From Verrucomicrobiota bacterium (GTDB lineage Bacteria > Verrucomicrobiota > Verrucomicrobiia > Limisphaerales > UBA1100), in NCBI GenBank assembly GCA_028343615.1, contig JAOLZA010000004.1:8697-72696 (forward strand): 64,000 bases of DNA, read 5' to 3'. Position numbers and translations under genes: made by a program. A model generated the notes under the pieces. It worked only from the letters and a program-made list of their open reading frames with translations, was not told the origin of the DNA and made no database searches. This document shows positions 3,906 through 18,340 of the stretch, piece by piece. Position 1 is the first letter of the stretch. Each line of letters starts with the position of its first letter.

Positions 3906-6900
3906 TTAGGGCTGCGTGTTGATTTGCTGCGAGGTGCCGTTTTGATCGGCCGCTGTGATGAGGCGGATTACGCGCGGGTTGGTAGCATTCACGTCGGCCC
4001 AACTGGAATTGTTATCACTGATATAGGTGTTGGTGATTGAGATTTGCGTGCCAGTGCTGTTGAACGTAATGCCAGCGGGTGGTGCTGCGGGGTCGATTGT
4101 GGATGTGATGAACACAGTGCCATTAGAGTCTGGGTCAGTAGAATTATCCTCGAAACGAATGGTCTTCACGCCGAGGAAGTTGCTGCCGTTGATGACGAGG
4201 TTACCTGTGCTGAGGTCGTAGGTATTGCTGCCACCATCGTAGCCGCCACCAGCGAAAGTAGCCGCGGCGTTGCCTAGGTAAGCGGGTGTGGCACTTACGC
4301 TGAAGGTGCCACTGGAATTATTGTCACTCACCACGATGCCAAAGGGCGTAGTGATTTTCATCCGGCGGGTGCTGTTGCTCGCAGCGTCCACTAAGTTAGC
4401 GTTGGGGAAGGAGTTGGCCGCGATAGTGAATTGAGTATTGTTCACATAAGTGGCACCGGTGGTGGTATCAATGCTGGTGTTGGCTGCGATGGTATTGCCG
4501 TTGATATCCACGATTTCCACGGAGGAAATTACGCCGAGACCAGAGCCGTTGACGGTGAATGTGTTGTTGTCACGACGGTAGTTAACCGCATCTGAAGTGG
4601 AACTGGTAGTGAGCCCACTGTAGCTGGTGTACTTGGGGGGCACGCCAACATAGAAACGCTGATCCTGTGCTGTGTAAACCGTGGTGCGTGGGCCGGTGAG
4701 GGCAAAACGGCGGTAGAGAGAATTGGCGCTGGAGTCACCGTCGCTGCCATTGAGGAATTGCGCGGTTTGGGTATCGATGACAATGGAGTTGTCGGTCACG
4801 GTTACGCCCGGGTTTGGCAGTGTAACAGCGGGCGTGTTGGACAGTGCACTGCCGTTTTCATCCACCATCACAATAGCGTTTACATTCTTTAGGTTAGTGC
4901 CGGTGATGGTGACATCATCGCCAGTGGTGGCATCGCGGTTAAACGTGTTGGGTGTTGTAAAGCCCGCTACAAAAAGCACCGTGGGCTGGGCGTTTACATT
5001 AAAGGCTAGCGTAGAATTAAGGTCGGTGTTGCCCACTATGTTAAATACTTTGAATTGTTTGTCCGTAGCGTTTCCGTCCGCCTGAGTAGTGAAAAATACA
5101 TCACGTGATATTTGGATGCGCGAACCGTTGTCATCTACAGTCACACCCGCAGCGGGGAGATCTACCTTCATTACCGGTGAAAGTGAGCTGCCGTCGGTAT
5201 TGACCAATTCAATTCGATAAGCGGTGTTGAGGGCGCTGCCGTTTATGTCGATCGCTTCATCACGTCGGAAGTTGCTGTCGAGCAACTGGCCTAGTGTGGC
5301 GATCACGGGCTTGGTGGTAATATTTGAAATAAGTGCCACACTGTTGGTGGCGGTGAGTTCTGAGGTGCCGCCGCCTCTGGCCACTCGAAGTCGGCGGTAT
5401 GAACCATCGGCAATGTTGCTGTTAATGGCGCTAAGCGGCAGAACTGCCTCGGTGTCAGACCGGATCTCAAACGCAACCTCTGTGCTGTTCCCACTGGCAG
5501 GGTACACCATCGTACCATCCGATTTTTCCACGCGGAAATAAGTGAGTGTGGAGTTGCCGTCACTGGCGCCAGAGATTTGCGAGCTTTTGAAGCCGTAACC
5601 GTAAACTGTTAGTGTTTGGGTACGGTCAAAGGTGAGGTTGTCCCGGCTAGTGCCGGTGATAACTGGCAAGCCAGTGTAGATGCCAATTGTATCTGTGGAT
5701 GCGGTGCTAGCACCGAGCGTATTCCATACACGCACCGTGCGTGTGCCGGAGGCGCCCTCGGCAAGCTCATCAATAACGCCGGCCGGTATGACGATTTGTT
5801 GATGCGACTTAATAAATGTTTGAACCTGAGAACCGCTTATAGTTTGCACTACCAAGTTGCCGTTCATGATTTGAATGTGTTCTACAGAATTGAGTAACTG
5901 CCCCTCAATGGTGAGACTTTCCTGTGTGCGGGTAAGGATGTCGTCCTGTCCGGAATCATAAATTCGCGTGATGGTGGGTACGGCGGTGGCGGGAGTAAGT
6001 ACGTTTTCGAGGATATGCATCTGTGCGTCATTTGGGAAGGTCACCACATCATTCGGCCCTGGCCCTTTAATATGGCCCCACAGCGAATAAGAATCGGTAT
6101 TGCCCACCACGCTGGCTTCACCGCTCCAGATGACTTCAAATCCCTCGCCTAGTTTGGTAAAGGTGTATTGCATGGGGCCCACAATTAGACCCGGCCCTAC
6201 ATTGGTGGTGAGCACCTGCACGGGGCCCAAGTTGTTGGTGTAGTTATCAATCCAAGCCGTGCTATCCGTACGGTTGAATGCGATGGGCACACCATCAGGT
6301 GAGACCCCTAGCTCATCGGCTACAAAAATTATATCCGGTTGAAAAATTCCTCGGCCAACTGTTTGCTCGAACCAAGCTAGTGTGGGAATACCGATATATG
6401 CGGATGCCCCCGGTGTTGTATTGTTTAAGCCTGCCACATTTTGACCATTCGTGCTCACGAACCGGTCAGTCCAAATATGGTTGGTGGCAGTAAAGGTAAT
6501 GCCTAGAAATGAGTCAAAAGGCTGTTCGATAAACTGCATCTTATCCATGCCTCCGCGCAGCGCCACATCCACCAAGGCCGGCGGAGCTTGCGCCGGCAGG
6601 GAGGAAGTGATGGGCAGTCCGGGAATAATACCTGAGTTTCTACGGGGGATGAATGCACCCGTTGTGCCCGAAGGATCCGGATACTGTCGCGGACTGCCAT
6701 TGGGAAAAACGGGAATCGCATAAGTCGGAAGGAAATTAGCCGGAACTATCAGCGCCACATTGGGATCGAGATTTTCATATACAATATTGCCCTTTCTATA
6801 AAGATAATGTAGTCCGCCCGCGTCATCATAAGTGAGTGCGTGGCGTGGTTTGTACTGACCGCCCATTGCGTATTTGCCGCTGTAAAACATTCCGAACCCA

Positions 6901-7664
6901 AATAGCGTGGGCTGATCCGTCCAGTAAATCGCTGTGTTGCCATAGAACGCGTCCACGATGCCCGCTACGGAAGTCCACGCATTACCACTGGTATCGGTGG
7001 TGAATTCCTCCATGTCCGCAAAGGTGGGTGCCACGGTGAAACCCGCCGAGGGCGGCGCGTCATGAATTAACCGATAGCTATAAGTCACACCGTTGATCAC
7101 CGACGTGGGCTTGAAGGTAATGGGATCAAAATTACGGAGGCGCACATTGAAATTCAATTGAGTGCCCGCAGCGTTGGTGGTGATTGCGCGCGCACCAAAC
7201 GCATAACGGTGTGGATTGCCCAAGCCGAGCTGGTTCACCACCATGCCTAGCACGAGGCTCTTAAGGTCGATAATGCCTGCCTCTTTCGCAGTGCGATTTT
7301 CCCACGTGGTATTGTAATTACTGCGAAACCCGTGCTCTGTGTAATCCAGAGCACTTACACCCGAGTAGTCATCATTTTCGAAAAAATCATTTACAATCGT
7401 AAACGCTTCCTTAACTGCCTCGCGTCCCTCGAGCCCGAAATATTGCATGAAGCTCGCATCAAACGCGTACGTAAGCATTGGGGTATTCCACCGGAAAAAC
7501 GTCTTGAGATCCTTCGGCCCGCCCAAGTCGTCCGTATAGTTGAAGTCGATGCCGCCACTGGATACTTCAGCAACATCCATCGGGCCGATCATGACAAAGG
7601 CCCGAGCACTCGGCGTCCCCAGCAACCCCGTCACGCAGCAAAGTGCAAGCACCAGTTTTTTCAT
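3906..7664 (-). CDS. Large secreted surface protein, 1252 aa: unassigned N-terminal region of about 550 aa plus a C-terminal array of IPT/TIG-like Ig-fold repeats
   Basis: Signal peptide MKKLVLALCCVTGLLGTPSARA. The C-terminal half has a recurring pattern (VTITGTNLKNVNAIVMVDENG..., FTVNGSGLGVISSVEIVDINGN..., LVINGSNFLGVKTIRFEDNS..., IDINGSALNTAYRIELVNTDG...). Composition is T/N/S/G-rich. No HExxH or other catalytic motif seen. Confidence 0.75.
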   Translation of the reverse strand: MKKLVLALCCVTGLLGTPSARAFVMIGPMDVAEVSSGGIDFNYTDDLGGPKDLKTFFRWNTPMLTYAFDASFMQYFGLEGREAVKEAFTIVNDFFENDDYSGVSALDYTEHGFRSNYNTTWENRTAKEAGIIDLKSLVLGMVVNQLGLGNPHRYAFGARAITTNAAGTQLNFNVRLRNFDPITFKPTSVINGVTYSYRLIHDAPPSAGFTVAPTFADMEEFTTDTSGNAWTSVAGIVDAFYGNTAIYWTDQPTLFGFGMFYSGKYAMGGQYKPRHALTYDDAGGLHYLYRKGNIVYENLDPNVALIVPANFLPTYAIPVFPNGSPRQYPDPSGTTGAFIPRRNSGIIPGLPITSSLPAQAPPALVDVALRGGMDKMQFIEQPFDSFLGITFTATNHIWTDRFVSTNGQNVAGLNNTTPGASAYIGIPTLAWFEQTVGRGIFQPDIIFVADELGVSPDGVPIAFNRTDSTAWIDNYTNNLGPVQVLTTNVGPGLIVGPMQYTFTKLGEGFEVIWSGEASVVGNTDSYSLWGHIKGPGPNDVVTFPNDAQMHILENVLTPATAVPTITRIYDSGQDDILTRTQESLTIEGQLLNSVEHIQIMNGNLVVQTISGSQVQTFIKSHQQIVIPAGVIDELAEGASGTRTVRVWNTLGASTASTDTIGIYTGLPVITGTSRDNLTFDRTQTLTVYGYGFKSSQISGASDGNSTLTYFRVEKSDGTMVYPASGNSTEVAFEIRSDTEAVLPLSAINSNIADGSYRRLRVARGGGTSELTATNSVALISNITTKPVIATLGQLLDSNFRRDEAIDINGSALNTAYRIELVNTDGSSLSPVMKVDLPAAGVTVDDNGSRIQISRDVFFTTQADGNATDKQFKVFNIVGNTDLNSTLAFNVNAQPTVLFVAGFTTPNTFNRDATTGDDVTITGTNLKNVNAIVMVDENGSALSNTPAVTLPNPGVTVTDNSIVIDTQTAQFLNGSDGDSSANSLYRRFALTGPRTTVYTAQDQRFYVGVPPKYTSYSGLTTSSTSDAVNYRRDNNTFTVNGSGLGVISSVEIVDINGNTIAANTSIDTTTGATYVNNTQFTIAANSFPNANLVDAASNSTRRMKITTPFGIVVSDNNSSGTFSVSATPAYLGNAAATFAGGGYDGGSNTYDLSTGNLVINGSNFLGVKTIRFEDNSTDPDSNGTVFITSTIDPAAPPAGITFNSTGTQISITNTYISDNNSSWADVNATNPRVIRLITAADQNGTSQQINTQP

Positions 7665-7871: not shown

Positions 7872-8780
7872 CTACTCAGCGCTAATTGCCGAGCGTAACG
7901 CTACCAGATTTGCCCGCATCACCTTCAACCAATCATCCGTTCCGTTTCCGGATCGATTGGCGCACGGAGCAAAAACCACACTGCGTATCATTTGTGTCTT
8001 GAGTTCGAGCACGATAGATTTGCCCGGCACATCTTCCCAGAGCATCACTCTTGCCGGATGTGTTTTGCGCAGTACCGCCAGTTCTGTCCAGCCTTCGGCA
8101 TCGGGCATTGCATCCGGTTCCCAGTGCACGCTGCGAATTTTCAAACCATAACCGCGCGACAAGTATTGGTAGACAGGATGCGACCCCAGTAGCGGCGTGT
8201 CTCCCAAATCGGCGGCGATGCCTCGCAAATCCGCATCCAGCGAAACCAAATCACGCTGCAACCCGGCAAAATTGTTCGCGAGGGTTTCGTCGTGCGTTGG
8301 CAATAAATCGGCCAGTGCACGATGCACCGCGGCGGCTTGTTGTTGGGCTTGTTTGAAATCCAGCCAAGTAGTGAACGCCATGCCTGTGTGGCTGTGTTCG
8401 CCGTCCTTGCCGTGCCGATGTACTGTATCGGCTTTCACCGCGATGAACGCATCGCGAAACGCCGCACTGGTGTTTATCGTACGCGAACCCGGCAGTGAAG
8501 ACCACGCCGTCCATTTCGCGTACGAAGCGCCATTGAGTAGAATCAAATCGTTAGATTGAAATTCCCGGACCTCTGCATTCGTTGGTTTCCAAAATGCCGG
8601 ATCCCCCTTGATCTTCGGGAAATGCACTTCCACCAAATCGCCCGCAATTCGTTCCACAAAATACGCCAGCGGATAATTCACTACGGCCACGCGCGGCTTG
8701 CCCGATCGCTGTGCGGGAGCATTCACCGTCGGTTTGCAGCCGATCACAAAAATCGAAATGAGGATCACAAGCTGTTTCAT
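7872..8780 (-). CDS. ZnuA/TroA-like (cluster A-I) metal-binding periplasmic lipoprotein
   Basis: Lipoprotein signal MKQLVILISIFVIGC. PRVAVVNYPLAYFVERIAGD, GSHPVYQYLSRGYGL and His-rich GKDGEHSHTG resemble Zn/Mn ABC solute-binding proteins. The start at 8780 gives an ATGA overlap with the upstream permease stop. Confidence 0.7.
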   Translation of the reverse strand: MKQLVILISIFVIGCKPTVNAPAQRSGKPRVAVVNYPLAYFVERIAGDLVEVHFPKIKGDPAFWKPTNAEVREFQSNDLILLNGASYAKWTAWSSLPGSRTINTSAAFRDAFIAVKADTVHRHGKDGEHSHTGMAFTTWLDFKQAQQQAAAVHRALADLLPTHDETLANNFAGLQRDLVSLDADLRGIAADLGDTPLLGSHPVYQYLSRGYGLKIRSVHWEPDAMPDAEGWTELAVLRKTHPARVMLWEDVPGKSIVLELKTQMIRSVVFAPCANRSGNGTDDWLKVMRANLVALRSAISAE

Positions 8781-9919
8781 CCGGCAAGTGTGTTCAAGTA
8801 ATCCCGCGCCCACCCCACCGTGGTCCACGCGGCGACGAGAGCGAGAGCAAAGGCGGCGATAAAAATAATTATTAGCTCCGCCGCCTGCAAAGAATACTGC
8901 GTGCCGCGACTACAGCCCAGTAAAAAGAGCGTCTGCATTTCCCGCGAGCGGAGCCGGCGCGACAGCGCGACAATCAGCGACAGCAGCATTCCCATCGCGC
9001 CCGCTACCATCACGTAGTTCGCATCGAGAAACTGTCGCACCCGCATCACCATCCCCATCATTTCATTGACGATAACTGGCGGCTTGAGTGCCTGCAGTTG
9101 GTCGCTATGTTGATAACGGCTCAACACCATCGCTGTTTCCTTGGCGTCCATCGGTTCCACGAGAATAGCCGTGAGCGGCAGCGCGGTGGTATCGCTGTGA
9201 AAATGAAACGTACCCATATTTTTCGGCGTGATTTCCAAATACGTTTTCACCATTTTCGCGCTAAGTGAGTTCGTGGCGTTATATTTACTTTCATCATGCC
9301 CGTGGCCGTGGCCCGCGATAATCCACGCCGTTTTCACATCCACAAACACCCCTTCATCATCTGCCGTGCCTGTGGCGGAAAGCACGCCGGTCACGTTAAG
9401 TTGCAGTGGATAATCGCCCGCGAGATCAAAAAGGTTTTTGCGGTCGGTTTTCAACTTATCGCCAGGACTGAGGCTTAACTCACTCGCAGCATTAGCTCCC
9501 AGTACACAATCACCCAAAAGCATCATCGATTCGCCACGCGCCATTTGCAATTCTCGGAACTCAAAATAATCCAGCGACGTTCCGACCACCGGCTGTCCAC
9601 CCGCGGTGAACTGCACGTGCAGCGGAATCACACGTCCGTGCCCCGCATCGCGCAGCGCGGTGAATTCTCCGTGCGCCACGGTGCCCTCACTGTGCGCGCG
9701 GAAGTACAGTCCGTGCAGCACAAGATCAAACCGACTGCCGCGCGCGCCCACAATCATTGGCGTGGTCGCCGCGCGCGCGCCCAGTGTTTCGTCGAATGCA
9801 TTCGCCGCCCAATGCGTTGCCAGTGGGAGGTACAGCGCCAGCGCCACGCCGGCCACCATCACGCCAGCCGCCACACGCCGTCGCCGCAGGTACAGCCAAG
9901 CCAGCCACAAGCTATTCAT
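8777..9919 (-). CDS. FtsX/MacB-like ABC permease, atypically short (apparently 3 TM), with a His-rich periplasmic loop
   Basis: N-terminal TM (VAAGVMVAGVALALYLPL), a periplasmic domain of about 270 aa containing AGHGHGHDES, then only two further hydrophobic segments flanking RRLRSREMQTLFLLGCSRG (FtsX cytoplasmic helix-like). Overlaps the ATPase gene by 8 nt. Confidence 0.65.
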   Translation of the reverse strand: MNSLWLAWLYLRRRRVAAGVMVAGVALALYLPLATHWAANAFDETLGARAATTPMIVGARGSRFDLVLHGLYFRAHSEGTVAHGEFTALRDAGHGRVIPLHVQFTAGGQPVVGTSLDYFEFRELQMARGESMMLLGDCVLGANAASELSLSPGDKLKTDRKNLFDLAGDYPLQLNVTGVLSATGTADDEGVFVDVKTAWIIAGHGHGHDESKYNATNSLSAKMVKTYLEITPKNMGTFHFHSDTTALPLTAILVEPMDAKETAMVLSRYQHSDQLQALKPPVIVNEMMGMVMRVRQFLDANYVMVAGAMGMLLSLIVALSRRLRSREMQTLFLLGCSRGTQYSLQAAELIIIFIAAFALALVAAWTTVGWARDYLNTLAG

Positions 9920-10589
9920 TCAGGGCCTCCTGTTTCTGAAATTTAGTAAAATCAACCACGCGGTCGAAGCGATCCAGCAGCGCGTGGTCGTGTGTCACCA
10001 TCACAAGCGTGGCCTCAGCGCTTTCGGCTTGTTGGAAAAGTTGGTCGAGAATGCGGTCCTTGTTTTTCGGATCAAGATTGCCGGTGGGTTCATCGCCCAG
10101 CAACAGATCGGGGCGTGGCAACAGCGCACGGCAAATGGCGACACGTTGTTGTTCGCCTTGCGACAACTCGTCTACTGGCGAATCCAACTTGTCCGCAAGG
10201 TCGAGCCGTTTGGCCTGCTGTTTCACCTGCGACTCGATGGAATCGTAAACCGGAAGCGCATCGTTGAGGCGATAGGGCAGCAAAATATTTTCGCGCACGT
10301 CGAGGTGCTCCACCAACCGAAAATCTTGGAACACAAAGCCAACGTGCCGAATGCGAAATGCGCGCCGGCCGGCATCGGCCAGTTCGTTCACCGGCACTTC
10401 ACCGATGGTCACCGTGCCTGATTGCGGCGTGACGATACCCGCGATCAACCGCAGCAGCGTTGTTTTACCCGAGCCACTCGGCCCCACGAAGGCCATGCGC
10501 GTGCCCGCTTCGATTTGTAAATCAGGAATACACAACCGGAAGCGCCCCGGACCGTATTCGAATTCAAGATTTTCAATCGTAACGCGCAT
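9912..10589 (-). CDS. ABC transporter ATP-binding protein (LolD/MacB-NBD-like)
   Basis: Walker A GPSGSGKTT, signature LSQGEQQRVAICRAL, Walker [14 protein letters not shown]-loop VTHD. Confidence 0.9.
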   Translation of the reverse strand: MRVTIENLEFEYGPGRFRLCIPDLQIEAGTRMAFVGPSGSGKTTLLRLIAGIVTPQSGTVTIGEVPVNELADAGRRAFRIRHVGFVFQDFRLVEHLDVRENILLPYRLNDALPVYDSIESQVKQQAKRLDLADKLDSPVDELSQGEQQRVAICRALLPRPDLLLGDEPTGNLDPKNKDRILDQLFQQAESAEATLVMVTHDHALLDRFDRVVDFTKFQKQEALNE

Positions 10590-10595
10590 GATGCA

Positions 10596-12356
10596 TTATC
10601 GATCCTCAAATTGTCGGATGCCGGTTTCGAAGCGCACGCGTTTTTCATCCGTCACCTCAAACGCCACAATTCGTCCGCGGTCTTCTGGAGTCGTACTGAG
10701 GAGGATGCGTGCGGTGTACTCATTCTCGCGCGTGTGAATGTGCCCCCAATGCTCCACCGTGCCGATGACGCGCCAAGTGCAATCGAGTGGCACGCGTTCG
10801 TCTTTAGTATTTTTGCCAGACGCGATTCGCATGATGCGCACACGCTTCACGTGCGCCACCGCGCCGCCCTGCTCCTGCATGCGCAGGCCAGATTGGATTT
10901 TCAAGAACAATTCTTCCAAAAGATCGCCCGTCACGCTATGTTCCAGCGCATCGTACACGTCGCTCTTTTCATTGTAGTCAAAAGCGCGGTAAATATTTTG
11001 CAGCAGGGTGGCGGCATGTTTGGTTACGATTCCGGCTTTTGATGTGGGCGTATTTGAAATACTAACAATGGCTAGCACGCCTGCGCCAACGACCAGCGCG
11101 CCGCCAAACGCTAAAGTCGATGCGCGCGAAATTCCGATGTACACCGCTAGCGCGAGTAGCAGGGCGGCCATTAAATTGATCGATGATCTTTTTGAGGTCA
11201 CCACGAGGTTGGGTAATTTAAAATCATGCGCGGTCGGAGGGTTGCCTTCGCGAGTCCATTCCCAGCGCGGTTGGTCGCGCACGAAGAATTCCTCGGTTGG
11301 ATCTTTTTCGTGGTCGTACACCACTGAGCGAAGGAAGGGAGCGGCTTCGTGGAAGGAATCCCACGTCAAACGCACGCGATTGGGCGGAGCTTTGGCGGGG
11401 TATTTCAGAATGATGCCGAGCCGCGCTTGATAGGCGCTCACGCGGCGGGGTTCGGCGTTCTCCGCAAAATCGCGGATATCGAGGCCGAAAAACTGAAGTC
11501 GCTGCAGAATGGGCTTCACGGGCACGCCGTCGATTTCCACGGGGTTGCGACCACGAAACCATTCGGCAACTTTTTGGCGCGCGGCTTCCTGTTCAGCGAC
11601 TTCGAGAAATGCCGGATTGGCGCGGGTGAGCGGCAGCCATTTTTCGAAGGTGAGTAGTGGCATCAAAATTTCGTGGCGCACTTCGCGGTCGGTCAAATAA
11701 ATGTACGAGTACAGCCCGCTGTAACTCGTGATGCCGAGGCGTTTCTGGAATTCCTCGGCGCGTTTCTTGCGCAGTTCGCGCCAGTTTTGCGGGGCTTGGT
11801 CAGGCGGGTTTTCCCAGTCCAGCGCCACGGTGTGCGGCTGTCCGGGCTGGAGCTGCACAGGTTTTTCAATCCACACGCCGGTTTGCAGCACCATGAATTC
11901 CATGATGGAAGGCACAACCGATTTTTCGCCGCCAAAGTTTTGGGTGAAGGTGAGGAAGGCGGGCTTGTTTTCTACGGGGGTGAACTTGAGAAGATACACG
12001 ACAGTGAGCTTCATTAGCTTCTCTGATGGCACGCCGTCATCCGAGATAACGGTATCATCGCGGCGATCCACCTCGCCCTTGAGTAACCGCCCCCGGGCAT
12101 CGCGCACTGTGAAATGTTTCAACAAAAATGCATCGTGCTTTTTGGCCGCCATGAGCAGGTCTGTGGCACTGAAGATTGTATCGCTATTGGCCTTGAGCCC
12201 GTGAAAGAGCACGAGATCCTCAAGCATCACGCGCATTTCCACGAGCACCTCGTTCTCGCGGCAATTTGCCACGGTGTTGCTCATGGAAATGGGATGTGCC
12301 ACGACGGATGCCGCTACGCAGAACCAGGCCAAGGCAATGACTCGAAGGGGATTCAC
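10596..12356 (-). CDS. Uncharacterized membrane protein: secreted N-terminal region of about 400 aa, TM block, and a C-terminal domain of about 140 aa
   Basis: Signal peptide MNPLRVIALAWFCVAASVVA followed by HPISMS. Hydrophobic block INLMAALLLALAVYIGISRASTLAFGGALVVGAGVLAIVSI. The C-terminal globular part begins ATLLQNIYRAFDY. No catalytic motif recognised. Operon position is between the MBL and ABC genes. Confidence 0.6.
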   Translation of the reverse strand: MNPLRVIALAWFCVAASVVAHPISMSNTVANCRENEVLVEMRVMLEDLVLFHGLKANSDTIFSATDLLMAAKKHDAFLLKHFTVRDARGRLLKGEVDRRDDTVISDDGVPSEKLMKLTVVYLLKFTPVENKPAFLTFTQNFGGEKSVVPSIMEFMVLQTGVWIEKPVQLQPGQPHTVALDWENPPDQAPQNWRELRKKRAEEFQKRLGITSYSGLYSYIYLTDREVRHEILMPLLTFEKWLPLTRANPAFLEVAEQEAARQKVAEWFRGRNPVEIDGVPVKPILQRLQFFGLDIRDFAENAEPRRVSAYQARLGIILKYPAKAPPNRVRLTWDSFHEAAPFLRSVVYDHEKDPTEEFFVRDQPRWEWTREGNPPTAHDFKLPNLVVTSKRSSINLMAALLLALAVYIGISRASTLAFGGALVVGAGVLAIVSISNTPTSKAGIVTKHAATLLQNIYRAFDYNEKSDVYDALEHSVTGDLLEELFLKIQSGLRMQEQGGAVAHVKRVRIMRIASGKNTKDERVPLDCTWRVIGTVEHWGHIHTRENEYTARILLSTTPEDRGRIVAFEVTDEKRVRFETGIRQFEDR

Positions 12357-12404
12357 GGGCGCGTTTTATAGCTGAATCGCACGACTTTCGGAAGCTTCAA
12401 CGAG

Positions 12405-14234
12405 TTATTTCACTTCCATCACCGTTTCCACCCAATCGTGGAAGTGCATGCCTTTGGAATCCACATCGGCCGTGATGACATACACACCCGGCTCTTTTGG
12501 CGCGCGGATTTCCACCTTCACCGCGCCTTCACCACGCGATGGCAGCGTGATGGAAATTGCCTTGGACAAAACCTCAACACCCCGATGGCCGCGCGGAGTC
12601 ACAGTGAATTTCCGCTGCGCAGGTGAGTGGTTGATGAGCCGCACCTCCACCTCGCGCGTTTCGCCGGGGCGCAGCGTACTGCCGTACGGATAAAACGTGG
12701 CCCATCGTTCATCGATGCCGTAGTTTGGATCATCCCACGGCAACAACTCGCGCAAAATTCGCTTGCGCTCCGCGTAGCGCGTTTCGAGAAAGGTCAGTTC
12801 CTTTTCAGAAAATCGGAACACATGCGGCACGTGCTGGTTGATGAGCCAAGTGTCCTGGGGCAGTTGACGGATGATTTTAAAGCACCTCCCGTAACCGGTA
12901 TCCGGATGCACAAGATTGCGATTGAGAAGGCAATAGTCATCAATGCCCGAAGGCGCGAAGGAGTCGCCAATAAAAAACACCGGCTTCGACTTGGGCCGCT
13001 GCACCAGCAACGCGCCATGGTAAAACATTTGGCCCGGGAAAAAACGAAACGTCAACTCGTACTCGTTCCATTTCAGTTTCGCGCCATCCTCCATCGCCAT
13101 CACGCGAGGCACCGCGTTTTCGGTGAGGCCGGGCATCAGATAACGGCCGGGGTTTTCCACCACGTCAGCGTATTCAGTGGTGGCGTACACGGGGCATTTA
13201 AAAAACTCGGCCGCCGCCTTTACCATTTGCGAGTGATCATCATGTATGTGCGTGAGGAAAATGCCGTCGATTTTTTTCACCACGTCACGGGCCACCAAAT
13301 CTTTCACGAAATCCAACTGCCGTTGCCCACCGCAATCCAGCAGAAACCCGTGTCCGTTATCCGCCACAATGATGCGACTGGTGGAAAATTCGATAATCCA
13401 TCCCGGCGTTTTTACGTGCAGACAATAAGGCATCAGCTCGATTTCTGCGCCCTTGCCCAGCACGCGCTCACCGCAAATACGCATGCGCTCCTCTTTGAAA
13501 TACCAGTGCAATGCGTTGGTCGAAAGATAGTTGCGATACAGTGCGCGCACCCGAGCGATCAGCTGGTCGATGGCTGCGTTCGGCTTACGAATGACCGGCC
13601 CGCGCGCGGGATAAATCACATCCAACTTAGCCGCCCGCAATTTTTGAAGGCTGGAAATCAAGTCCGCCAACCGTCCTCCGTAGCCGTGATAGCCGCCCAC
13701 CTTCGCCGTCGGGATGGCATCCTGAAAACTATACAAATCAAAAATTTTTCCATCGCCCATAATCAAGTCGCCCGTGAACCCCACGCGCCGGCCCTCCACC
13801 GTGCCCACGTACGACACAGCCCCGCGCGTGAACCCCGGCGTGCCCAGCACCTTCAACCGCACCGCGCCCACCGTCACCACATCGCCCTTCTTCACCCATC
13901 GCCGCACTACCACCGGCTCCACTGGCACCTTCGTGGATTGCTGCGCGTAATAATGAAATCGCTTCTTCGCGAATCCCTCCCAAAACTCGCGTGCCTTTTC
14001 AAAGTGCACGCGCTCCGCCTCCGGCGCAACGATTGCGCCCGCCAACTTTCCGTGAGCATCCCGCCGATGATGCGTGAGCAGAACCGTGCCCGTCCCCTTC
14101 ACCGCGCCATAGATCGCCACCGTTTTACCGCTTGAAGTGACGGTGAATTGATTGACGTGATGCAGTTCGAAATGCTGCTGAATCGCCGCGTGTGTCGCCA
14201 AGGCTGTGGTAAGGAAAACAATTAAAACGCGCAT
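12405..14234 (-). CDS. Secreted MBL-fold metallo-hydrolase: a degenerate first lobe, a canonical second lobe and a C-terminal Ig-like domain
   Basis: Signal peptide MRVLIVFLTTALATHA. Canonical HxHxDH motif in FLTHIHDDHSQM. The first half carries only LLTHHRRDAHG. The C-terminal beta-rich segment (VEVRLINHS...VYVITADVD) looks like a CARDB/Ig fold. Confidence 0.7.
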   Translation of the reverse strand: MRVLIVFLTTALATHAAIQQHFELHHVNQFTVTSSGKTVAIYGAVKGTGTVLLTHHRRDAHGKLAGAIVAPEAERVHFEKAREFWEGFAKKRFHYYAQQSTKVPVEPVVVRRWVKKGDVVTVGAVRLKVLGTPGFTRGAVSYVGTVEGRRVGFTGDLIMGDGKIFDLYSFQDAIPTAKVGGYHGYGGRLADLISSLQKLRAAKLDVIYPARGPVIRKPNAAIDQLIARVRALYRNYLSTNALHWYFKEERMRICGERVLGKGAEIELMPYCLHVKTPGWIIEFSTSRIIVADNGHGFLLDCGGQRQLDFVKDLVARDVVKKIDGIFLTHIHDDHSQMVKAAAEFFKCPVYATTEYADVVENPGRYLMPGLTENAVPRVMAMEDGAKLKWNEYELTFRFFPGQMFYHGALLVQRPKSKPVFFIGDSFAPSGIDDYCLLNRNLVHPDTGYGRCFKIIRQLPQDTWLINQHVPHVFRFSEKELTFLETRYAERKRILRELLPWDDPNYGIDERWATFYPYGSTLRPGETREVEVRLINHSPAQRKFTVTPRGHRGVEVLSKAISITLPSRGEGAVKVEIRAPKEPGVYVITADVDSKGMHFHDWVETVMEVK

Positions 14235-14326
14235 CCGTACAGGGTAGTTCGCAGCGCGCTAAAAGCAACCTCGCACGGGATTAGACTTGAAAAATAGGCG
14301 CAAAACCTCCACCAATCTTCCAAGGA

Positions 14327-15523
14327 GTGACGACCCAAACTGCAACCCAACCCTGCTGGCAATCCCGCGGCGAACGCCTTGGCGAAATTAGCCTCGTCCT
14401 GATCGGCTTCACCATCCCGCTTTCCAATGCACTGTGCACTGGCGTGTTCCCGGCACTGGCAGTGGTGGCGTGGCTGATGCTGTGCGGCTGGCGGGGTGTG
14501 CCAAAATTGTTGCGCGAAAACCGCGTGGCGCTGTTGTGCGTGGTGCTGTTCGCGTGGCTCGGCGTGGCGGGCATCTACGGCGGCGGCAGTGAAGCCTTCG
14601 GCATCTGGAAAAAATATCGCGAGCTCGCGCTGATCATTATTTACATGGGTCTCGCCTCCGCCCTGCCCAACCGCACGCGAGCCGTGACCGCCCTCGCCAT
14701 CGGCCTCATGCTCGCTATGCAAATCAGCTTCATGCAAGCGGCGGGAATATTGCCAATGAAACACGGCAACGCCGTGCTCTCTAGCAGCCTCACGCATGGA
14801 GCATTGATGGCATGGTTGGTATTTTGGCTGATGCATTATCATCATAAAACCGGGATGAACGGCATCCTCGCGTTGGTGGCGCTGGTGCTGGCGAATTTAT
14901 TTTTCCTTGTGGATTCCTCTACCGGCGTAGTGCTCGTGCTGTCGTTGGGATTGCTCTTCGGTTTGCAAACGATGCGTCGTGCCAAACTCGCAGTGATGGC
15001 TGGTGGTCTCATAGCCGTGGTGGTGTTTGCGTTTGCAGTTTCACCCATGTTTCGCACCGCCACCCAAGGGGATGTGAAAGCAGTGCAAGAAATGTTGAAC
15101 GGGAAAATCACCTTCACGCCCACTGGCGAGCGCCTGCAATTTTACCGCAACAGCCTTGCTCTCCTCAGTCAAGCGCCGGTGCTGGGCCATGGCACTGGGC
15201 GGTTCCACGAAAAATACGCCATGCATGTGGCTGGCACAAACCAAGTGGTGACGGCCAATCCGCACAACGAATACCTGATGGTGGGTGTACAATCGGGGTT
15301 GGTTGGCGTAGGGATTTTACTGGCCCTCTTTTGGGCCTTGTGGCAAGCCGCCGCACGATGGGAGGGAATGGATCGTTGGCTGGCACAGGGCATGGTGGTG
15401 TGGCTATCGGTGGGCTGCTGCTTCAATTCCTTTATTTTAGACTCCCGCGAGGGTATGCTCTTCGCCCTGCTGACCGCGCTGTACGCCAAGCCGCCATCGT
15501 CCAATCCCCATGATTCATCCTAG
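14327..15523 (+). CDS. O-antigen ligase/polymerase family membrane protein (Wzy_C domain, WaaL-like)
   Basis: Polytopic membrane protein with NPHNEYLMVGVQSGLVGVGILLALF, typical of the O-antigen ligase family. Confidence 0.8.
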   Translation: MTTQTATQPCWQSRGERLGEISLVLIGFTIPLSNALCTGVFPALAVVAWLMLCGWRGVPKLLRENRVALLCVVLFAWLGVAGIYGGGSEAFGIWKKYRELALIIIYMGLASALPNRTRAVTALAIGLMLAMQISFMQAAGILPMKHGNAVLSSSLTHGALMAWLVFWLMHYHHKTGMNGILALVALVLANLFFLVDSSTGVVLVLSLGLLFGLQTMRRAKLAVMAGGLIAVVVFAFAVSPMFRTATQGDVKAVQEMLNGKITFTPTGERLQFYRNSLALLSQAPVLGHGTGRFHEKYAMHVAGTNQVVTANPHNEYLMVGVQSGLVGVGILLALFWALWQAAARWEGMDRWLAQGMVVWLSVGCCFNSFILDSREGMLFALLTALYAKPPSSNPHDSS

Positions 15524-16307
15524 TATCTCACTGATCATCAGTACGTACGACCGGCCTGGCGCATTGACCAAGGTGTTGGCTGGCGTTGCGGGACAAGTGG
15601 TTCAGCCGCTGGAGGTGATGCTGGCCGATGATGGTTCGGCCGGTTTGACCCGGTCCGTTGTAGACAAGCTGACCCGGGAATTGCCATTATCCCTACGGCA
15701 TTTGTGGCATAAGAATCTGGGCTTCCGAAAGACCATTATTCTCAACGAGGCAATCCAACAAGCGCGGGGAGAGTATATTGTTTTGCTCGATGGCGATTGC
15801 GTGCCGCATCGAAAGTTTATTCGTGACCATCAGGAATTAGCCGAATCTGGCTACTGGGTGCAGGGGCGGCGTAGTTTTTTAACCGAACAATTTTCCCCTA
15901 GTTTTCAACCCCTTCGAAACAGGTTTATGACCTGTTGGTTGCGTGCTCGCGCCAGTGGTTTGTTCAAGGGCATTCGCTGGCCTTGGCCCATTGTGTATCG
16001 CAATCAAACTCAACGCGGTATTGTTGGTTGCAACATGGGGGTGTGGCGTGAGGACTTGATCCTAATCAATGGGTTCGATGAGGAGTACGAGGGCTGGGGG
16101 CTGGAAGATTCCGATCTGGGCAATCGCCTCTATAACCTAGGCCGCCCTCGAAAATTCGTTTACGGCCGGGCGATTGTTCATCATCTGAACCACCGGGAAA
16201 CCTCGCGCACCGAGCTTTCCGCCAACCACGACCGGCTGCAAGCCACCCTCGAATCGGGTCGGGTGCGTTGCCAGTCCGGGTTGAGTACGCATCAGCCCAT
16301 CTCCTGA
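15510..16307 (+). CDS. Glycosyltransferase family 2 (with a galactosyltransferase-type C-terminal region)
   Basis: ISLIISTYDRPGAL, MLADDGS, DxD LLDGDCVP, GFDEEYEGWGLEDSDLGNRL. Confidence 0.85.
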   Translation: MIHPSISLIISTYDRPGALTKVLAGVAGQVVQPLEVMLADDGSAGLTRSVVDKLTRELPLSLRHLWHKNLGFRKTIILNEAIQQARGEYIVLLDGDCVPHRKFIRDHQELAESGYWVQGRRSFLTEQFSPSFQPLRNRFMTCWLRARASGLFKGIRWPWPIVYRNQTQRGIVGCNMGVWREDLILINGFDEEYEGWGLEDSDLGNRLYNLGRPRKFVYGRAIVHHLNHRETSRTELSANHDRLQATLESGRVRCQSGLSTHQPIS

Positions 16308-16310
16308 GCC

Positions 16311-17333
16311 ATGCGGATAATACAAATTGTTCGTCGGTTTGGCCCAGTCGGCGGGCTGGAGGGATACGCCTGGCAGTTGACCCGCGCCCTCGCCGCGCGC
16401 AGCCTCGCCGTGGCCGTGGTGTGCGAGACGGATGAATCAGAAGCCATCAGAGGCGTTGCCGTGACAGCTCTTGGGAAAATGCGCCCCAAGCCGCGCTGGC
16501 TGCATTACCTTCGATTTGCCCGGCGTGTGGCAGCGCAGCGCAAGATGCAAAGCCGCAAGAATGAAATTTGGCACAGCCATGAAATGGTCACCTGCGCGGA
16601 AGTGGGGACCTTTCATTCCACCGCTCATGGCGCGGGCGAGCGGGCACTGCACAAACGACTGGATCCTACCTGGCACGTCAACCGCTGGCTTGAGCGTCGC
16701 ACCATGGCGGGCTCAGCTTTGCGAGCGATGGTGCCCGTCTCCGCGCCGGTTCGTGTGCAACTGGCTGCCGTGCATACTCGTTGGGCGGAACGGCTGGCGG
16801 ACCCTATTCGCCCAGGCGTGGAGTTGCCGGAACCCATCGCGACAAGGGAAACGGGTCCGGTGATGGGGTTTATCGGGCGAGAGTGGAAACGCAAGGGGCT
16901 GCCGCGCGTGTTGGAAATGCTCCGAGCCATGCCGGACGCTCGGTTGGTGATCGCCGGCGTGCCTCGCGAAGAAATCACCCGCCTCCTTGTGGGTTTGGAA
17001 ACTCGCGTGGAGCTGCTCGGTTGGGTGAACGATCCCAATGATTTTTATAGTCGAATCAGCCTGCTGGTTCACCCCGCTAAACTCGAAGCCTACGGTATGG
17101 TAGTGGCCGAGGCTTTGGCGCGGCGCATTCCGGTGCTTGTCTCCGAAGCCACCGGTGCGTCCGCCGACATGGGCGCGGCGGGGCGTGCCCTGCCCCACAC
17201 TGCGCCAGTGCAGCCTTGGACCGCCGCCGCGCGCGGAATGCTGTCCCAACCGCCGGATGCATTTCCTCCCACCCGTTCGTGGGCCGAGGTGGCCGAGGAA
17301 TACCATTTGCTTTACCAGGGATTAACCCTTTGA
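16311..17333 (+). CDS. Glycosyltransferase family 4 (GT-B, RfaG-like)
   Basis: GFIGREWKRKGL and EAYGMVVAEALARRIPVLVSE (EX7E-type motif). Confidence 0.8.
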   Translation: MRIIQIVRRFGPVGGLEGYAWQLTRALAARSLAVAVVCETDESEAIRGVAVTALGKMRPKPRWLHYLRFARRVAAQRKMQSRKNEIWHSHEMVTCAEVGTFHSTAHGAGERALHKRLDPTWHVNRWLERRTMAGSALRAMVPVSAPVRVQLAAVHTRWAERLADPIRPGVELPEPIATRETGPVMGFIGREWKRKGLPRVLEMLRAMPDARLVIAGVPREEITRLLVGLETRVELLGWVNDPNDFYSRISLLVHPAKLEAYGMVVAEALARRIPVLVSEATGASADMGAAGRALPHTAPVQPWTAAARGMLSQPPDAFPPTRSWAEVAEEYHLLYQGLTL

Positions 17334-17368
17334 CTACACGCTATGCCGTCTGATTTGCTTGTCGCCCA

Positions 17369-18340
17369 ATGAGAACACTCGTGACAGGCGGTGCCGGTTA
17401 TGTGGGCAGCGTGTGCGTGGAGCGCCTACTGGCCGAAGGCCATGCGGTGACGGTGTTGGATGACCTGTCCGTGGGACACCGTGCCGCCGTGGCGCCGGGC
17501 GCGCAGTTCTGCGAGGGGAACATTGGCGACCCTGCTCTGCTGGATGCGTTGATGACTAAGGCGCGCCCGGAAGTGGTGCTGCATTTTGCCGGTAGTGCTT
17601 TGGTGGGGGAATCGATGGAAGACCCCTTCAAATATTTTCAAAACAACACCTCAAACGGCATCACCCTATTGAAAGCCGCGGAGGCAGCGAAAGTAGGGAA
17701 ATTTATTTTTAGTTCCACCTGTGCCGTGTATGGCGAGCCGGAAACCGTGCCGATAACGGAGACCGCCCCATGCCAACCGGTGAATCCTTACGGTGCATCC
17801 AAACTTATGATGGAACAGACGATGGAATGGCAGGCCCAAGCCACGGGTATGGAATGCGTGGCTCTACGCTACTTCAATGCCGCCGGTGCCAGCAAACAAT
17901 TCGGAGAACATCACCGGCACGAAACCCACATCATTCCCTGCCTGCTTCAAACTGCCCTCGGCCAACGCGAAACCTTTTCTCTGTTCGGCACCAATCATCC
18001 CACCTCCGACGGCACCTGTATTCGCGATTACATTCACGTGTCCGACCTCGCCGCCGCCCATGCATTGGCCCTGCGCCCGGGCATCAGCGGTCCCTTCAAC
18101 CTCGGCCGTGGCCACGGTGATTCCGTCCGCGAAGTATTGACTGCTTGTCGCGAGGTGACGGGCCACGCCATCCCCGTGGAAGAGCAACCCGCACGCCCCG
18201 GCGATCCTCCCGAACTGGTGGCCGACGTGACCAAGGCCAGCGCGGAACTGGGTTGGCAGGCGGCACACACAGAAATTCGGACCATCGTGGAGACTGCCTG
18301 GCTCTGGCACCAGCGGTTTCCCCAAGGTTATCCGGCCTGA
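17369..18340 (+). CDS. galE: UDP-glucose 4-epimerase
   Basis: MRTLVTGGAGYVGS, SSTCAVYG, YGASKLMMEQ (YxxxK), RYFNAAGA. Confidence 0.9.
   Translation: MRTLVTGGAGYVGSVCVERLLAEGHAVTVLDDLSVGHRAAVAPGAQFCEGNIGDPALLDALMTKARPEVVLHFAGSALVGESMEDPFKYFQNNTSNGITLLKAAEAAKVGKFIFSSTCAVYGEPETVPITETAPCQPVNPYGASKLMMEQTMEWQAQATGMECVALRYFNAAGASKQFGEHHRHETHIIPCLLQTALGQRETFSLFGTNHPTSDGTCIRDYIHVSDLAAAHALALRPGISGPFNLGRGHGDSVREVLTACREVTGHAIPVEEQPARPGDPPELVADVTKASAELGWQAAHTEIRTIVETAWLWHQRFPQGYPA

Follow-up and report, generated by a model that had tools for sequence, protein, structure and literature searches.

The Zrg/PA4063-66 systems are Zur-regulated, MacB-like ATP-binding cassette (ABC) systems that include a non-canonical periplasmic metal-binding protein (PMC9820375, PMC11481552). 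Their contribution to metal nutrition is disputed between zinc import in Vibrio cholerae, where Zrg is needed for growth under zinc limitation (PMC9820375), and pyochelin-cobalt export in Pseudomonas aeruginosa, where PA4064/PA4065 were argued to be the exporter and a PA4065 mutant accumulates cobalt (PMC11481552). The metal-binding partners ZrgA and PA4063, together with Ang-1, are published periplasmic metal binders (PMC12537917, PMC9820375, PMC8561739); Ang-1 binds metal through an N-terminal histidine that is exposed by cleavage of the signal peptide, and its authors name ZrgA as its closest structure (PMC12537917). Here we describe a five-gene operon from a Verrucomicrobiota bacterium that combines features of these systems with a ZnuA-fold lipoprotein. 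It lies within a 64,000-nt stretch (hereafter the window) of contig JAOLZA010000004.1 (assembly GCA_028343615.1, positions 8,697 to 72,696).

The operon comprises five minus-strand open reading frames (ORFs) encoding, in order, a 609-aa metallo-beta-lactamase (MBL)-fold protein, a 586-aa periplasmic protein, a 225-aa ABC ATPase, a 380-aa permease and a 302-aa ZnuA-like lipoprotein. A 48-nt gap separates the MBL and 586-aa genes and a 6-nt gap the 586-aa and ATPase genes; ATPase and permease overlap by 8 nt, and permease and ZnuA-like gene by 4 nt (ATGA). The genes, spacings and motifs reported in a first-pass annotation of the bare sequence were all recovered at their exact coordinates, and the positions of the motifs were confirmed by translation (Table 1). 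Our reading, to which we assign a probability of roughly 50%, is that the operon encodes a metal-acquisition machine of the periplasm that is related to Zrg and forms a new branch of such split MacB-fold ABC systems. Metal handling, at which that annotation had hinted from His-rich elements, is indicated because histidine motifs are invariant across phyla in three periplasmic parts of the system and because one of these parts matches ZrgA, PA4063 and Ang-1 at the level of fold. The invariant His/Asp/Glu sets of all three parts would represent metal sites.

Kinship with the Zrg systems is seen in the permease. A tblastn search of plasmids with the window permease returned near relatives in two cultured Proteobacteria, Paracoccus liaowanqingii (43% identity) and Methylomagnum ishizawai (42.6% identity), and weaker matches (26% identity, E 2e-5) in Zrg operons, for example from Phaeobacter, where the gene order is Fur-family regulator, DUF2796 (ZrgA family), ATPase, permease with four transmembrane (TM) helices and DUF3299 (ZrgE family). 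A hidden Markov model (HMM) of the window-permease family scored the Phaeobacter Zrg-type permease at 86.6 bits over nearly its full length and the canonical FtsX/Lol permeases of the window and of Gimesia at no more than 5 bits; the family is therefore a specific sister of the Zrg-type permeases. The same model gave 91-107 bits for permeases of 402 and 420 aa, longer than the three-helix family, from Deinococcus radiodurans MP1 (locus L093, NC_000958, 1551-6044) and a Shinella plasmid (L094, 1868-6107). The gene order in both is alkaline phosphatase, a 152/154-aa protein with a signal of the twin-arginine (TAT) type, ABC ATPase and permease, and from their sequences these loci appear to be a further Zrg-like ABC pair beside a periplasmic metallo-hydrolase.

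The permease itself fell just short of the Pfam cutoffs (MacB_PCD, 26.3 bits, cutoff 27; FtsX, 15.7 bits, cutoff 25.5), while many of its homologs carry a precomputed PF12704 assignment. Its AlphaFold2 (AF2) model (pLDDT 84) contains long helices at residues 15-52, 280-323 and 338-379. The long TM1/stalk helix leads into a periplasmic domain of mixed alpha/beta structure, after which come a long helix forming stalk and TM2, a short helix in the cytoplasm and a last TM helix. Foldseek matched the model to MacB (5gko, E 7.7e-12), LolCDE including LolE, HrtB, YbbP and BceB, and to the MacB periplasmic domain (3ftj, target-normalized TM-score (TMt) 0.60). The model thus agrees with the first-pass assignment of the only permease at the locus to the FtsX/MacB type, and predicts the type VII ABC (MacB/FtsX/LolCE) architecture of TM1, large periplasmic Sabre/Porter domain and stalk helices. 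Type VII permeases have four TM helices, the FtsX domain spanning TM2-TM4; here there are three long ones. The Pfam FtsX match of these permeases ends at profile position 69-73 of 120 (positions 6-69 for the window protein), while a canonical FtsX gene from the contig of the Gimesia locus, serving as control, matches positions 3-120. With homologs of 377-395 aa throughout, loss of TM4 is a trait of the family, and because three helices remain the C-terminus is periplasmic. Among 51 permease sequences from several phyla, D187, D188, H206, H208 and H239 are invariant and H241 is conserved in 98%; the pairs H206/H208 and H239/H241 are each located at a beta-strand predicted for the periplasmic domain. 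The partner ATPase matched ABC_tran (7e-34), with FtsE, L_ocin_972_ABC, YbbA and LolD as best NCBIfam matches, and its Walker A, signature, Walker B and H-loop motifs are intact.

The ZnuA-like ORF extends from 7872 to 8828, and the ATG at 8780 gives a 302-aa lipoprotein MKQLVILISIFVIGC. It matches PF01297 over the entire profile (positions 1-263 of 263; 5.9e-33, 114.9 bits, cutoff 29) and has 35 relatives in the PDB. The canonical metal ligands of such a solute-binding protein (SBP), the loss of which the first-pass annotation had named as grounds for abandoning its proposal, are nevertheless mostly missing. In the alignment to YcdH and AdcA, His1 is replaced by Ala (GDPAFW), His2 by Thr (FTTWL) and the acidic fourth ligand (Glu4) by Ala, with His3 kept; among 28 family members, His1 is present in none, His2 in 6, His3 in 23 and the acidic fourth ligand in none. 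Instead, the family carries an H-x-H-G-x(4,5)-H-x-H motif in which H121, H123 and H131 are conserved in 28/28 and H129 in 27/28 sequences. The GEHSHTG segment is thus part of a conserved tetra-His motif that replaces the canonical ligands, rather than a loose His-rich loop.

In four loci (L060, L071, L073 and L085), a single ORF encodes the three-helix permease, a linker of ~25 residues that lacks a hydrophobic segment, and the ZnuA-like domain. A database search with the fusion retrieved at least 120 distinct clusters of full-length fusion proteins (673-698 aa, 64-100% identical, on contigs of up to 675 kb) that carry PF12704/PF02687 and PF01297 on one chain. The fused form characterizes one large lineage. 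Given this number and diversity, assembly artefacts are a very unlikely source. Because both form one polypeptide in these clusters, the ZnuA-fold protein is a partner of the MacB-fold permease, and the topology is consistent, since the three-helix permease ends in the periplasm, where the ZnuA domain follows. We considered whether the signal peptide of the ZnuA-like protein supplies the missing TM4, and rejected this because the fusions have no fourth helix, which would place the ZnuA domain in the cytoplasm.

The 586-aa protein had no sequence match in Pfam, NCBIfam or the PDB. Its AF2 model (pLDDT 77) has four parts: two beta-rich domains with the same order of secondary structure (residues 24-180 and 215-370), a TM hairpin and a C-terminal NTF2-like domain. 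The hairpin is missing from many homologs, so both regions flanking it are periplasmic. As the first-pass annotation had noticed, the signal peptide is followed directly by His-Pro, and the first mature residue (H21), after an AxA-type cleavage site, is His in 50/50 sequences. H74 and E229 are invariant in the family, and the motif E535-H536-W-G-H539-x-H541 is present in 96%. Foldseek gave copper-bound Ang-1 (9gce; E 1.9e-6, probability 1.00, TMt 0.58) as the best domain-sized superposition on a solved structure, and also zinc-bound V. cholerae ZrgA (8f1b, E 2e-5) and P. aeruginosa PA4063; the 8f1b and 7bgo matches (E 2e-5 to 8e-4, TMt about 0.6) are at the level of fold, with no Pfam or phmmer match to ZrgA/DUF2796. 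A full-length match, 8b6l_O, superposed poorly (root-mean-square deviation 27 Å), and the C-terminal domain matched NTF2 folds of the ARC6 and ketosteroid-isomerase types. Profile searches of beta domains 1 and 2 against PDB sequences yielded chance matches only, and because sequence profiles thus connect these domains to no solved protein, the link to ZrgA and Ang-1 is structural only. An hhalign comparison of domain 1 with domain 2 was suggestive only (E 0.03, colinear over 152 columns).

Table 1. Features of the operon and its borders (window coordinates)
Feature	Position	Strand	Basis or remark
Secreted two-lobed MBL-fold protein, 609 aa, C-terminal immunoglobulin-like region	12405-14234	-	Pfam, NCBIfam
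586-aa periplasmic protein	10596-12356	-	AF2 model, Foldseek
Signal peptide of 586-aa protein	12297-12356	-	
Mature N-terminal His21 (...SVVA, cleavage, HP)	12294-12296	-	directly after predicted signal peptide
Beta-sandwich domain 1	11772-12296	-	AF2
Beta-sandwich domain 2	11223-11744	-	AF2
Optional TM hairpin (residues 389-433)	11058-11192	-	AF2
NTF2-like domain (residues 441-580)	10605-11036	-	AF2
EHWGHIH motif in NTF2-like domain	10734-10754	-	
ABC ATPase, FtsE/LolD/MacB type, 225 aa	9912-10589	-	ABC_tran, NCBIfam
ATPase Walker A	10461-10484	-	
ATPase signature LSQGEQQR	10143-10166	-	
ATPase Walker B	10083-10106	-	
ATPase H-loop	9987-9998	-	
Type VII (MacB/LolC-fold) permease, 380 aa, three TM helices	8777-9919	-	AF2, Foldseek
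Permease D187/D188	9356-9361	-	periplasmic, invariant
Permease H206-G-H208 (HGH within GHGHGHD)	9296-9304	-	periplasmic, invariant
Permease H239-x-H241	9197-9205	-	periplasmic
Cluster A-I (ZnuA/TroA) fold lipoprotein, 302 aa	7872-8780	-	PF01297
Lipobox Cys of ZnuA-like protein	8736-8738	-	
Tetra-His motif HRHGKDGEHSH of ZnuA-like protein	8388-8420	-	
Divergent intergenic region 5' of operon, 92 nt, presumed promoter	14235-14326		
1252-aa secreted protein, possible lineage-specific accessory gene	3906-7664	-	207 nt downstream of ZnuA-like gene

The 586-aa family is large: a word-indexed search gave 497 matches, and an exhaustive one gave 2391 representative clusters at E<=1e-3. A pattern scan with one genome per GTDB species yielded 118 confirmed loci spanning Verrucomicrobiota, Planctomycetota (Pirellulaceae, Planctomycetaceae/Gimesia and Sedimentisphaerales), Kiritimatiellia, Lentisphaerales/Victivallales, Hydrogenedentota and Calditrichota. 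The arrangement recurs on a Zixibacteria contig, and some Proteobacteria also carry the family; the neighborhood is kept across at least 8 phyla. The window proteins were mapped onto six-frame ORFs of 86 loci, and counts were limited to the 45 with at least 4.5 kb of flank on each side. ATPase and permease adjoin the 586-aa homolog in 27 of these 45, usually downstream and in Planctomycetaceae divergently, and the ZnuA-like gene is also present in 19 of the 27; the MBL gene stands immediately upstream of the 586-aa gene in 16 of the 45. The operon proposed in the first-pass annotation is therefore real and co-conserved, but its core is the 586-aa protein with ATPase and permease, to which the ZnuA-like and MBL genes are often added; the complete set of five is typical of a single Verrucomicrobia subgroup only (L005, L007-L011, L020, L028 and L031). 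De novo clustering of all neighboring ORFs revealed no widely shared partner beyond the five genes except a Verrucomicrobia-restricted 1252-aa family; it otherwise gave only shadow ORFs and lineage-specific genes.

Clues to the metal come from proteobacterial relatives on plasmids. In Methylomagnum (L090, NZ_AP019784, 1983-12445), a 498-aa homolog of the 586-aa protein (E 2e-31) is followed by ATPase, three-helix permease and ZnuA-like gene and, further downstream, by genes for a 117-aa multi-TM protein, a TonB-dependent receptor and NikR, with a CopC gene upstream. The 498-aa gene is preceded, at a distance of ~60 nt, by an imperfect dyad (GGAAACC-N26-GGTTTCC), and an inverted-repeat search for a NikR operator found nothing convincing in this locus. 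In Paracoccus (L089, NZ_CP040763, 4959-10059), the trio of ATPase, permease and ZnuA-like gene is situated between two genes of DUF4198, an N-terminal-His, nickel-binding family whose genes neighbor NikR and TonB receptors (PMC12537917). A further gene ahead of the trio encodes a membrane-anchored protein of 166 aa, whose match to the 586-aa protein is confined to the NTF2-like domain (E 1e-15, H-x2-H-x-H motif); a 105-aa protein with His right after the signal peptide is encoded there too, and the whole set stands behind a type II secretion gene cluster. The DUF4198 genes here replace the N-terminal domains of the 586-aa protein. The NTF2-like His domain thus travels with the ABC trio while the capture domain is swapped, being ZrgA/Ang-1-like in bacteria of the Planctomycetes-Verrucomicrobia-Chlamydiae (PVC) group and DUF4198 in Paracoccus, and the system is therefore modular. 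These proteobacterial neighborhoods, together with a urease-linked locus described below (L092), favor nickel or cobalt; by analogy, kinship with Zrg keeps zinc in play and the Ang-1 and CopC parallels make copper possible. On balance the metal is probably nickel/cobalt or zinc.

Searches for regulatory signals were negative. In the intergenic region 14235-14326, where the first-pass annotation had advised looking for Zur/Fur-type operators, a scan for them found none, although the consensus used is proteobacterial and the result therefore weak evidence on regulation in this host. An inverted-repeat search of 14150-14420 found none inside 14235-14326, the only one (14162-14175) lying in the MBL gene, and the single Zur-like match of the window, at 27861, is at chance level. 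Rfam at gathering thresholds detected no riboswitch in the window and 14 related loci, with no family assigned to the intergenic region, and phmmer with NikR, Fur, TonB receptor, DUF4198, CopC, DUF2796 and DUF3299 found no match among all ORFs of the 86 loci and the window. An element TTTTCAAGTC is common to the upstream intergenic regions of the window, L008, L009 and L012, and similar TTTCAAG strings occur upstream in L011, L013 and L016; the element may be a promoter element or may just reflect close relatedness.

For the metal-acquisition reading, we envisage the following course. The N-terminal-His domain of the 586-aa protein would capture a scarce metal ion in the periplasm, and the His sites in the NTF2-like domain, in the ZnuA-fold protein and in the periplasmic domain of the permease would pass the ion on, with ATP-driven mechanotransmission by the ABC module making the hand-over directional. 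The destination would most likely be the cytoplasm; alternatively, the ion would be delivered to a client within the periplasm, for example the binuclear MBL hydrolase of the same operon. Within this reading, we consider uptake into the cytoplasm more likely than delivery to periplasmic enzymes. The MBL protein may itself receive the metal as a client, or it may act enzymatically to release metal from an organic ligand.

Several observations weigh against this interpretation. To our knowledge, inward transport of a substrate across the inner membrane has been described for no MacB-fold ABC protein. The evidence for all of the putative metal sites is conservation, and the kinship of the 586-aa protein with ZrgA and Ang-1 is at the level of fold, the matches not specifying which beta domain (1 or 2) is aligned. 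In 17 of the 45 fully flanked loci, the 586-aa gene is present without the ATPase-permease pair. The searches detected no regulator, riboswitch or Zur/Fur box in the window or in the 86 loci of the PVC group, and the nickel/cobalt hints come from three proteobacterial plasmids only, three observations and not statistics. Finally, for the relative in P. aeruginosa the case has been made for export (PMC11481552).

The MBL protein is central to the first alternative, that of a type VII ABC-hydrolase machine in which the pair transports nothing and mechanotransmission activates, metallates or feeds substrate to the periplasmic MBL, the ZnuA-fold and 586-aa proteins acting as adaptors or metallochaperones (compare FtsEX-EnvC-amidase and YbbAP-TesA). 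The protein carries a signal peptide and matches Lactamase_B in two stretches (2e-13); its nearest solved relatives, LACTB2 and glyoxalase II, are distant. The catalytic signature of the MBL superfamily, HxHxDH with downstream His, Asp and His, is complete in lobe 2 (HIHDDH at 13233-13250, with H406, D424 and H468), and the residues of the binuclear site (H329, H331, D333, H334, H406, D424 and H468) are invariant in 32 homologs. Lobe 1 (THHRRDAH at 14052-14075) does not conform to the signature and keeps only T54, R57, R58 and D59 (TxxRRD) across the same homologs, so that the description of one canonical and one degenerate lobe in the first-pass annotation holds. The complete signature of lobe 2 would suit this alternative. 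Type VII ABC proteins typically drive periplasmic partners, including the hydrolase of the reported YbbAP-TesA complex (PMC12646458), and the arrangement needs no transmembrane path, which the MacB fold lacks. The Zrg-like pairs directly after the alkaline phosphatase genes of D. radiodurans MP1 and Shinella point the same way, as does the adjacency of MBL and 586-aa genes in about 35 loci. These, however, include loci with no ABC pair (L025, L051, L056, L083 and L092), and about half of the ATPase-permease loci, among them those of Gimesia, Hydrogenedentota, Paracoccus and Methylomagnum, have no MBL gene nearby. The nikR, TonB-receptor and DUF4198 contexts, moreover, resemble uptake routes. 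We regard an ABC-hydrolase machine as unlikely.

One of the loci without ABC genes deserves separate description. On the Rhodobacteraceae bacterium M382 plasmid CP081101 (L092, 4842-9116), a homolog of the 586-aa protein, 547 aa long, is encoded behind two separate genes of the MBL fold, and the set adjoins urtABCDE (urea transport) and urease genes.

A second alternative is export or detoxification, in which the system would clear surplus metal, or a metal-chelate, from the periplasm or inner membrane, much as PA4064/PA4065 have been proposed to do with pyochelin-cobalt. Such a role would agree with the outward direction in which all characterized MacB-fold transporters move their substrates, with the cobalt accumulation of the PA4065 mutant (PMC11481552) and with the CopC gene near the Methylomagnum cluster. 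Against this, the conserved neighbors of the cluster include neither a periplasmic adaptor of the MacA type nor a TolC-type gene, acquisition systems are characterized by N-terminal-His capture domains and SBP folds, and NikR, encoded downstream in Methylomagnum, classically controls uptake genes; we give export little credence. An ordinary ZnuA-type importer, with a ZnuB-type permease encoded elsewhere and the FtsX-like genes as unrelated neighbors, is hardly tenable despite the strong PF01297 match and the automatic annotation of homologs as 'zinc ABC transporter substrate-binding protein', since only one canonical ligand of four is kept, every ZnuA-like gene of the 45 fully flanked loci is accompanied by the FtsX-like permease, and the covalent fusion to the permease in at least 120 clusters contradicts it. 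For the genome studied here, the analysis covered the 64-kb window.

The gene downstream of the operon encodes the 1252-aa protein, separated from the ZnuA-like gene by a weak terminator-like hairpin (7874-7894). The protein is rich in Thr, Asn and Ser, its first 600 aa show ~80% column identity across 13 homologs, and it has no match in Pfam or the PDB; an impression by eye of a degenerate matrixin was dropped for lack of support from either. The family trails the cluster in 18 loci, all from Verrucomicrobia, following the 586-aa homolog directly in L002-L004 and L026 and, where the ZnuA-like gene is missing, the permease in L013-L019. In L001 (10449-15500), a called 1683-aa gene joins the permease to this family. 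We do not regard it as a second genuine fusion, as the large protein still has a start Met and a signal peptide of its own; the probable cause is that a stop was lost, or the frame shifted, in this polished long-read contig.

Divergent from the operon, on the plus strand (14327-18340), a Wzy_C O-antigen-ligase-like gene comes first, accompanied by 265- and 340-aa ORFs that align with called GT2 and GT1 glycosyltransferase genes of L001 and by a 323-aa ORF that appears from its sequence to be a GalE-type epimerase, no family-library search having been made. The L001 cluster is flanked by the same Wzy_C/glycosyltransferase neighbors, and polysaccharide genes (Polysacc_synt_2, Bac_transf) flank the cluster in L002, L003 and L005. 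A 502-aa ORF (12627-14135, plus strand) lies antisense to the MBL gene; similar shadow ORFs face conserved genes in every related locus and seem to be artefacts of composition.

Taken further, the architecture would suggest a new ABC mode, which we advance tentatively: a three-helix MacB-fold mechanotransmitter, a tethered SBP-fold domain and an N-terminal-His 'angler' protein would together use cytoplasmic ATP to power the transfer of metal in the periplasm, where there is no ATP. If true, this would amount either to inward transport by a type VII ABC protein, which would be unprecedented, or to powered metal stripping and insertion into exported metalloenzymes (the MBL here, alkaline phosphatase in the Deinococcus and Shinella relatives), and either outcome would also explain how the Zrg systems work. 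The sister family offers natural experiments in the form of a partner fused to the permease, mutable invariant His clusters and a modular capture domain. In marine Verrucomicrobia and Planctomycetes, where nickel, cobalt and zinc are scarce and ligand-bound, it is possibly an important trace-metal route. About 2,400 clusters of unannotated proteins now have a working hypothesis attached to them, and the zinc transporter label is corrected for a protein of SBP fold whose canonical zinc site is missing. The architecture would surprise specialists in ABC transporters and in metal homeostasis, and gives a handle on the role of MacB-fold ABC proteins in metal nutrition.

How far the system departs from those already described depends on the component considered. 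The first-pass annotation had found that the combination matched no known system, and in the literature searched we found no description of a ZnuA-fold partner of a type VII ABC permease, of a three-helix MacB-fold permease or of the 586-aa family; the kinship of the permease with Zrg and the published layout of the latter nonetheless qualify that statement. With the Cluster A-I SBPs (ZnuA, AdcA, TroA and PsaA), the lipoprotein shares the whole PF01297 domain, its lipidation and a His segment at the position of the His-rich loop of the zinc SBPs. In contrast to them, it does not keep the canonical site of three His and one Asp/Glu, its loop is invariant where theirs is variable, and its partner, to which it may be fused, is a MacB-fold rather than a ZnuB (ABC-3) permease. 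With MacB, LolCDE, FtsEX, HrtBA and YbbAP, the ABC pair shares the fold of TM1, periplasmic domain and stalk helices and the clade of the ATPase, but its permease lacks TM4 and carries an invariant periplasmic His cluster, and no partner of the MacA/TolC, LolA or EnvC type accompanies it. With Ang-1, DUF6702 and DUF4198, the 586-aa protein has in common a His as first residue after signal-peptide cleavage and a beta-sandwich in which strand 2 leads to strand 3 by way of helices. Ang-1 itself is fused to a HupE/UreJ-2 secondary permease, whereas the 586-aa protein has no HupE/UreJ domain; in the latter, two copies of the domain are linked to an NTF2-like domain and paired with an ABC system, and sequence similarity to Ang-1 is undetectable.

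The likeness to Zrg extends to the arrangement of the genes. Both systems pair a separate FtsE/LolD-like ATPase with a MacB-fold permease that has a large periplasmic domain, and both encode, directly upstream of the ATPase, a secreted His-bearing partner that binds metal in Zrg and putatively does so here, the fold of the Zrg partner matching part of the 586-aa model. They differ in that the Zrg permease has four TM helices and the window permease three, and that the HGH and FHxH motifs of the latter are absent from the one Zrg-type permease read (Phaeobacter). DUF2796 (ZrgA) and DUF3299 (ZrgE) were not found in the window system; the C-terminal domain of the 586-aa protein was considered as a ZrgE equivalent and rejected because PA4066/ZrgE is OB-like (PMC8561739) and this domain NTF2-like. 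No Fur/Zur gene or box is found near the window system, which adds to the common plan a ZnuA-fold lipoprotein, the NTF2-like EHWGHxH domain, an N-terminal-His brace and often an MBL hydrolase. Since an ATPase and MacB-like permease with an upstream periplasmic metal-binding protein constitute the published Zrg layout, and since the permeases are homologous, the cluster is a variant of the Zrg kind and not a categorically new system.

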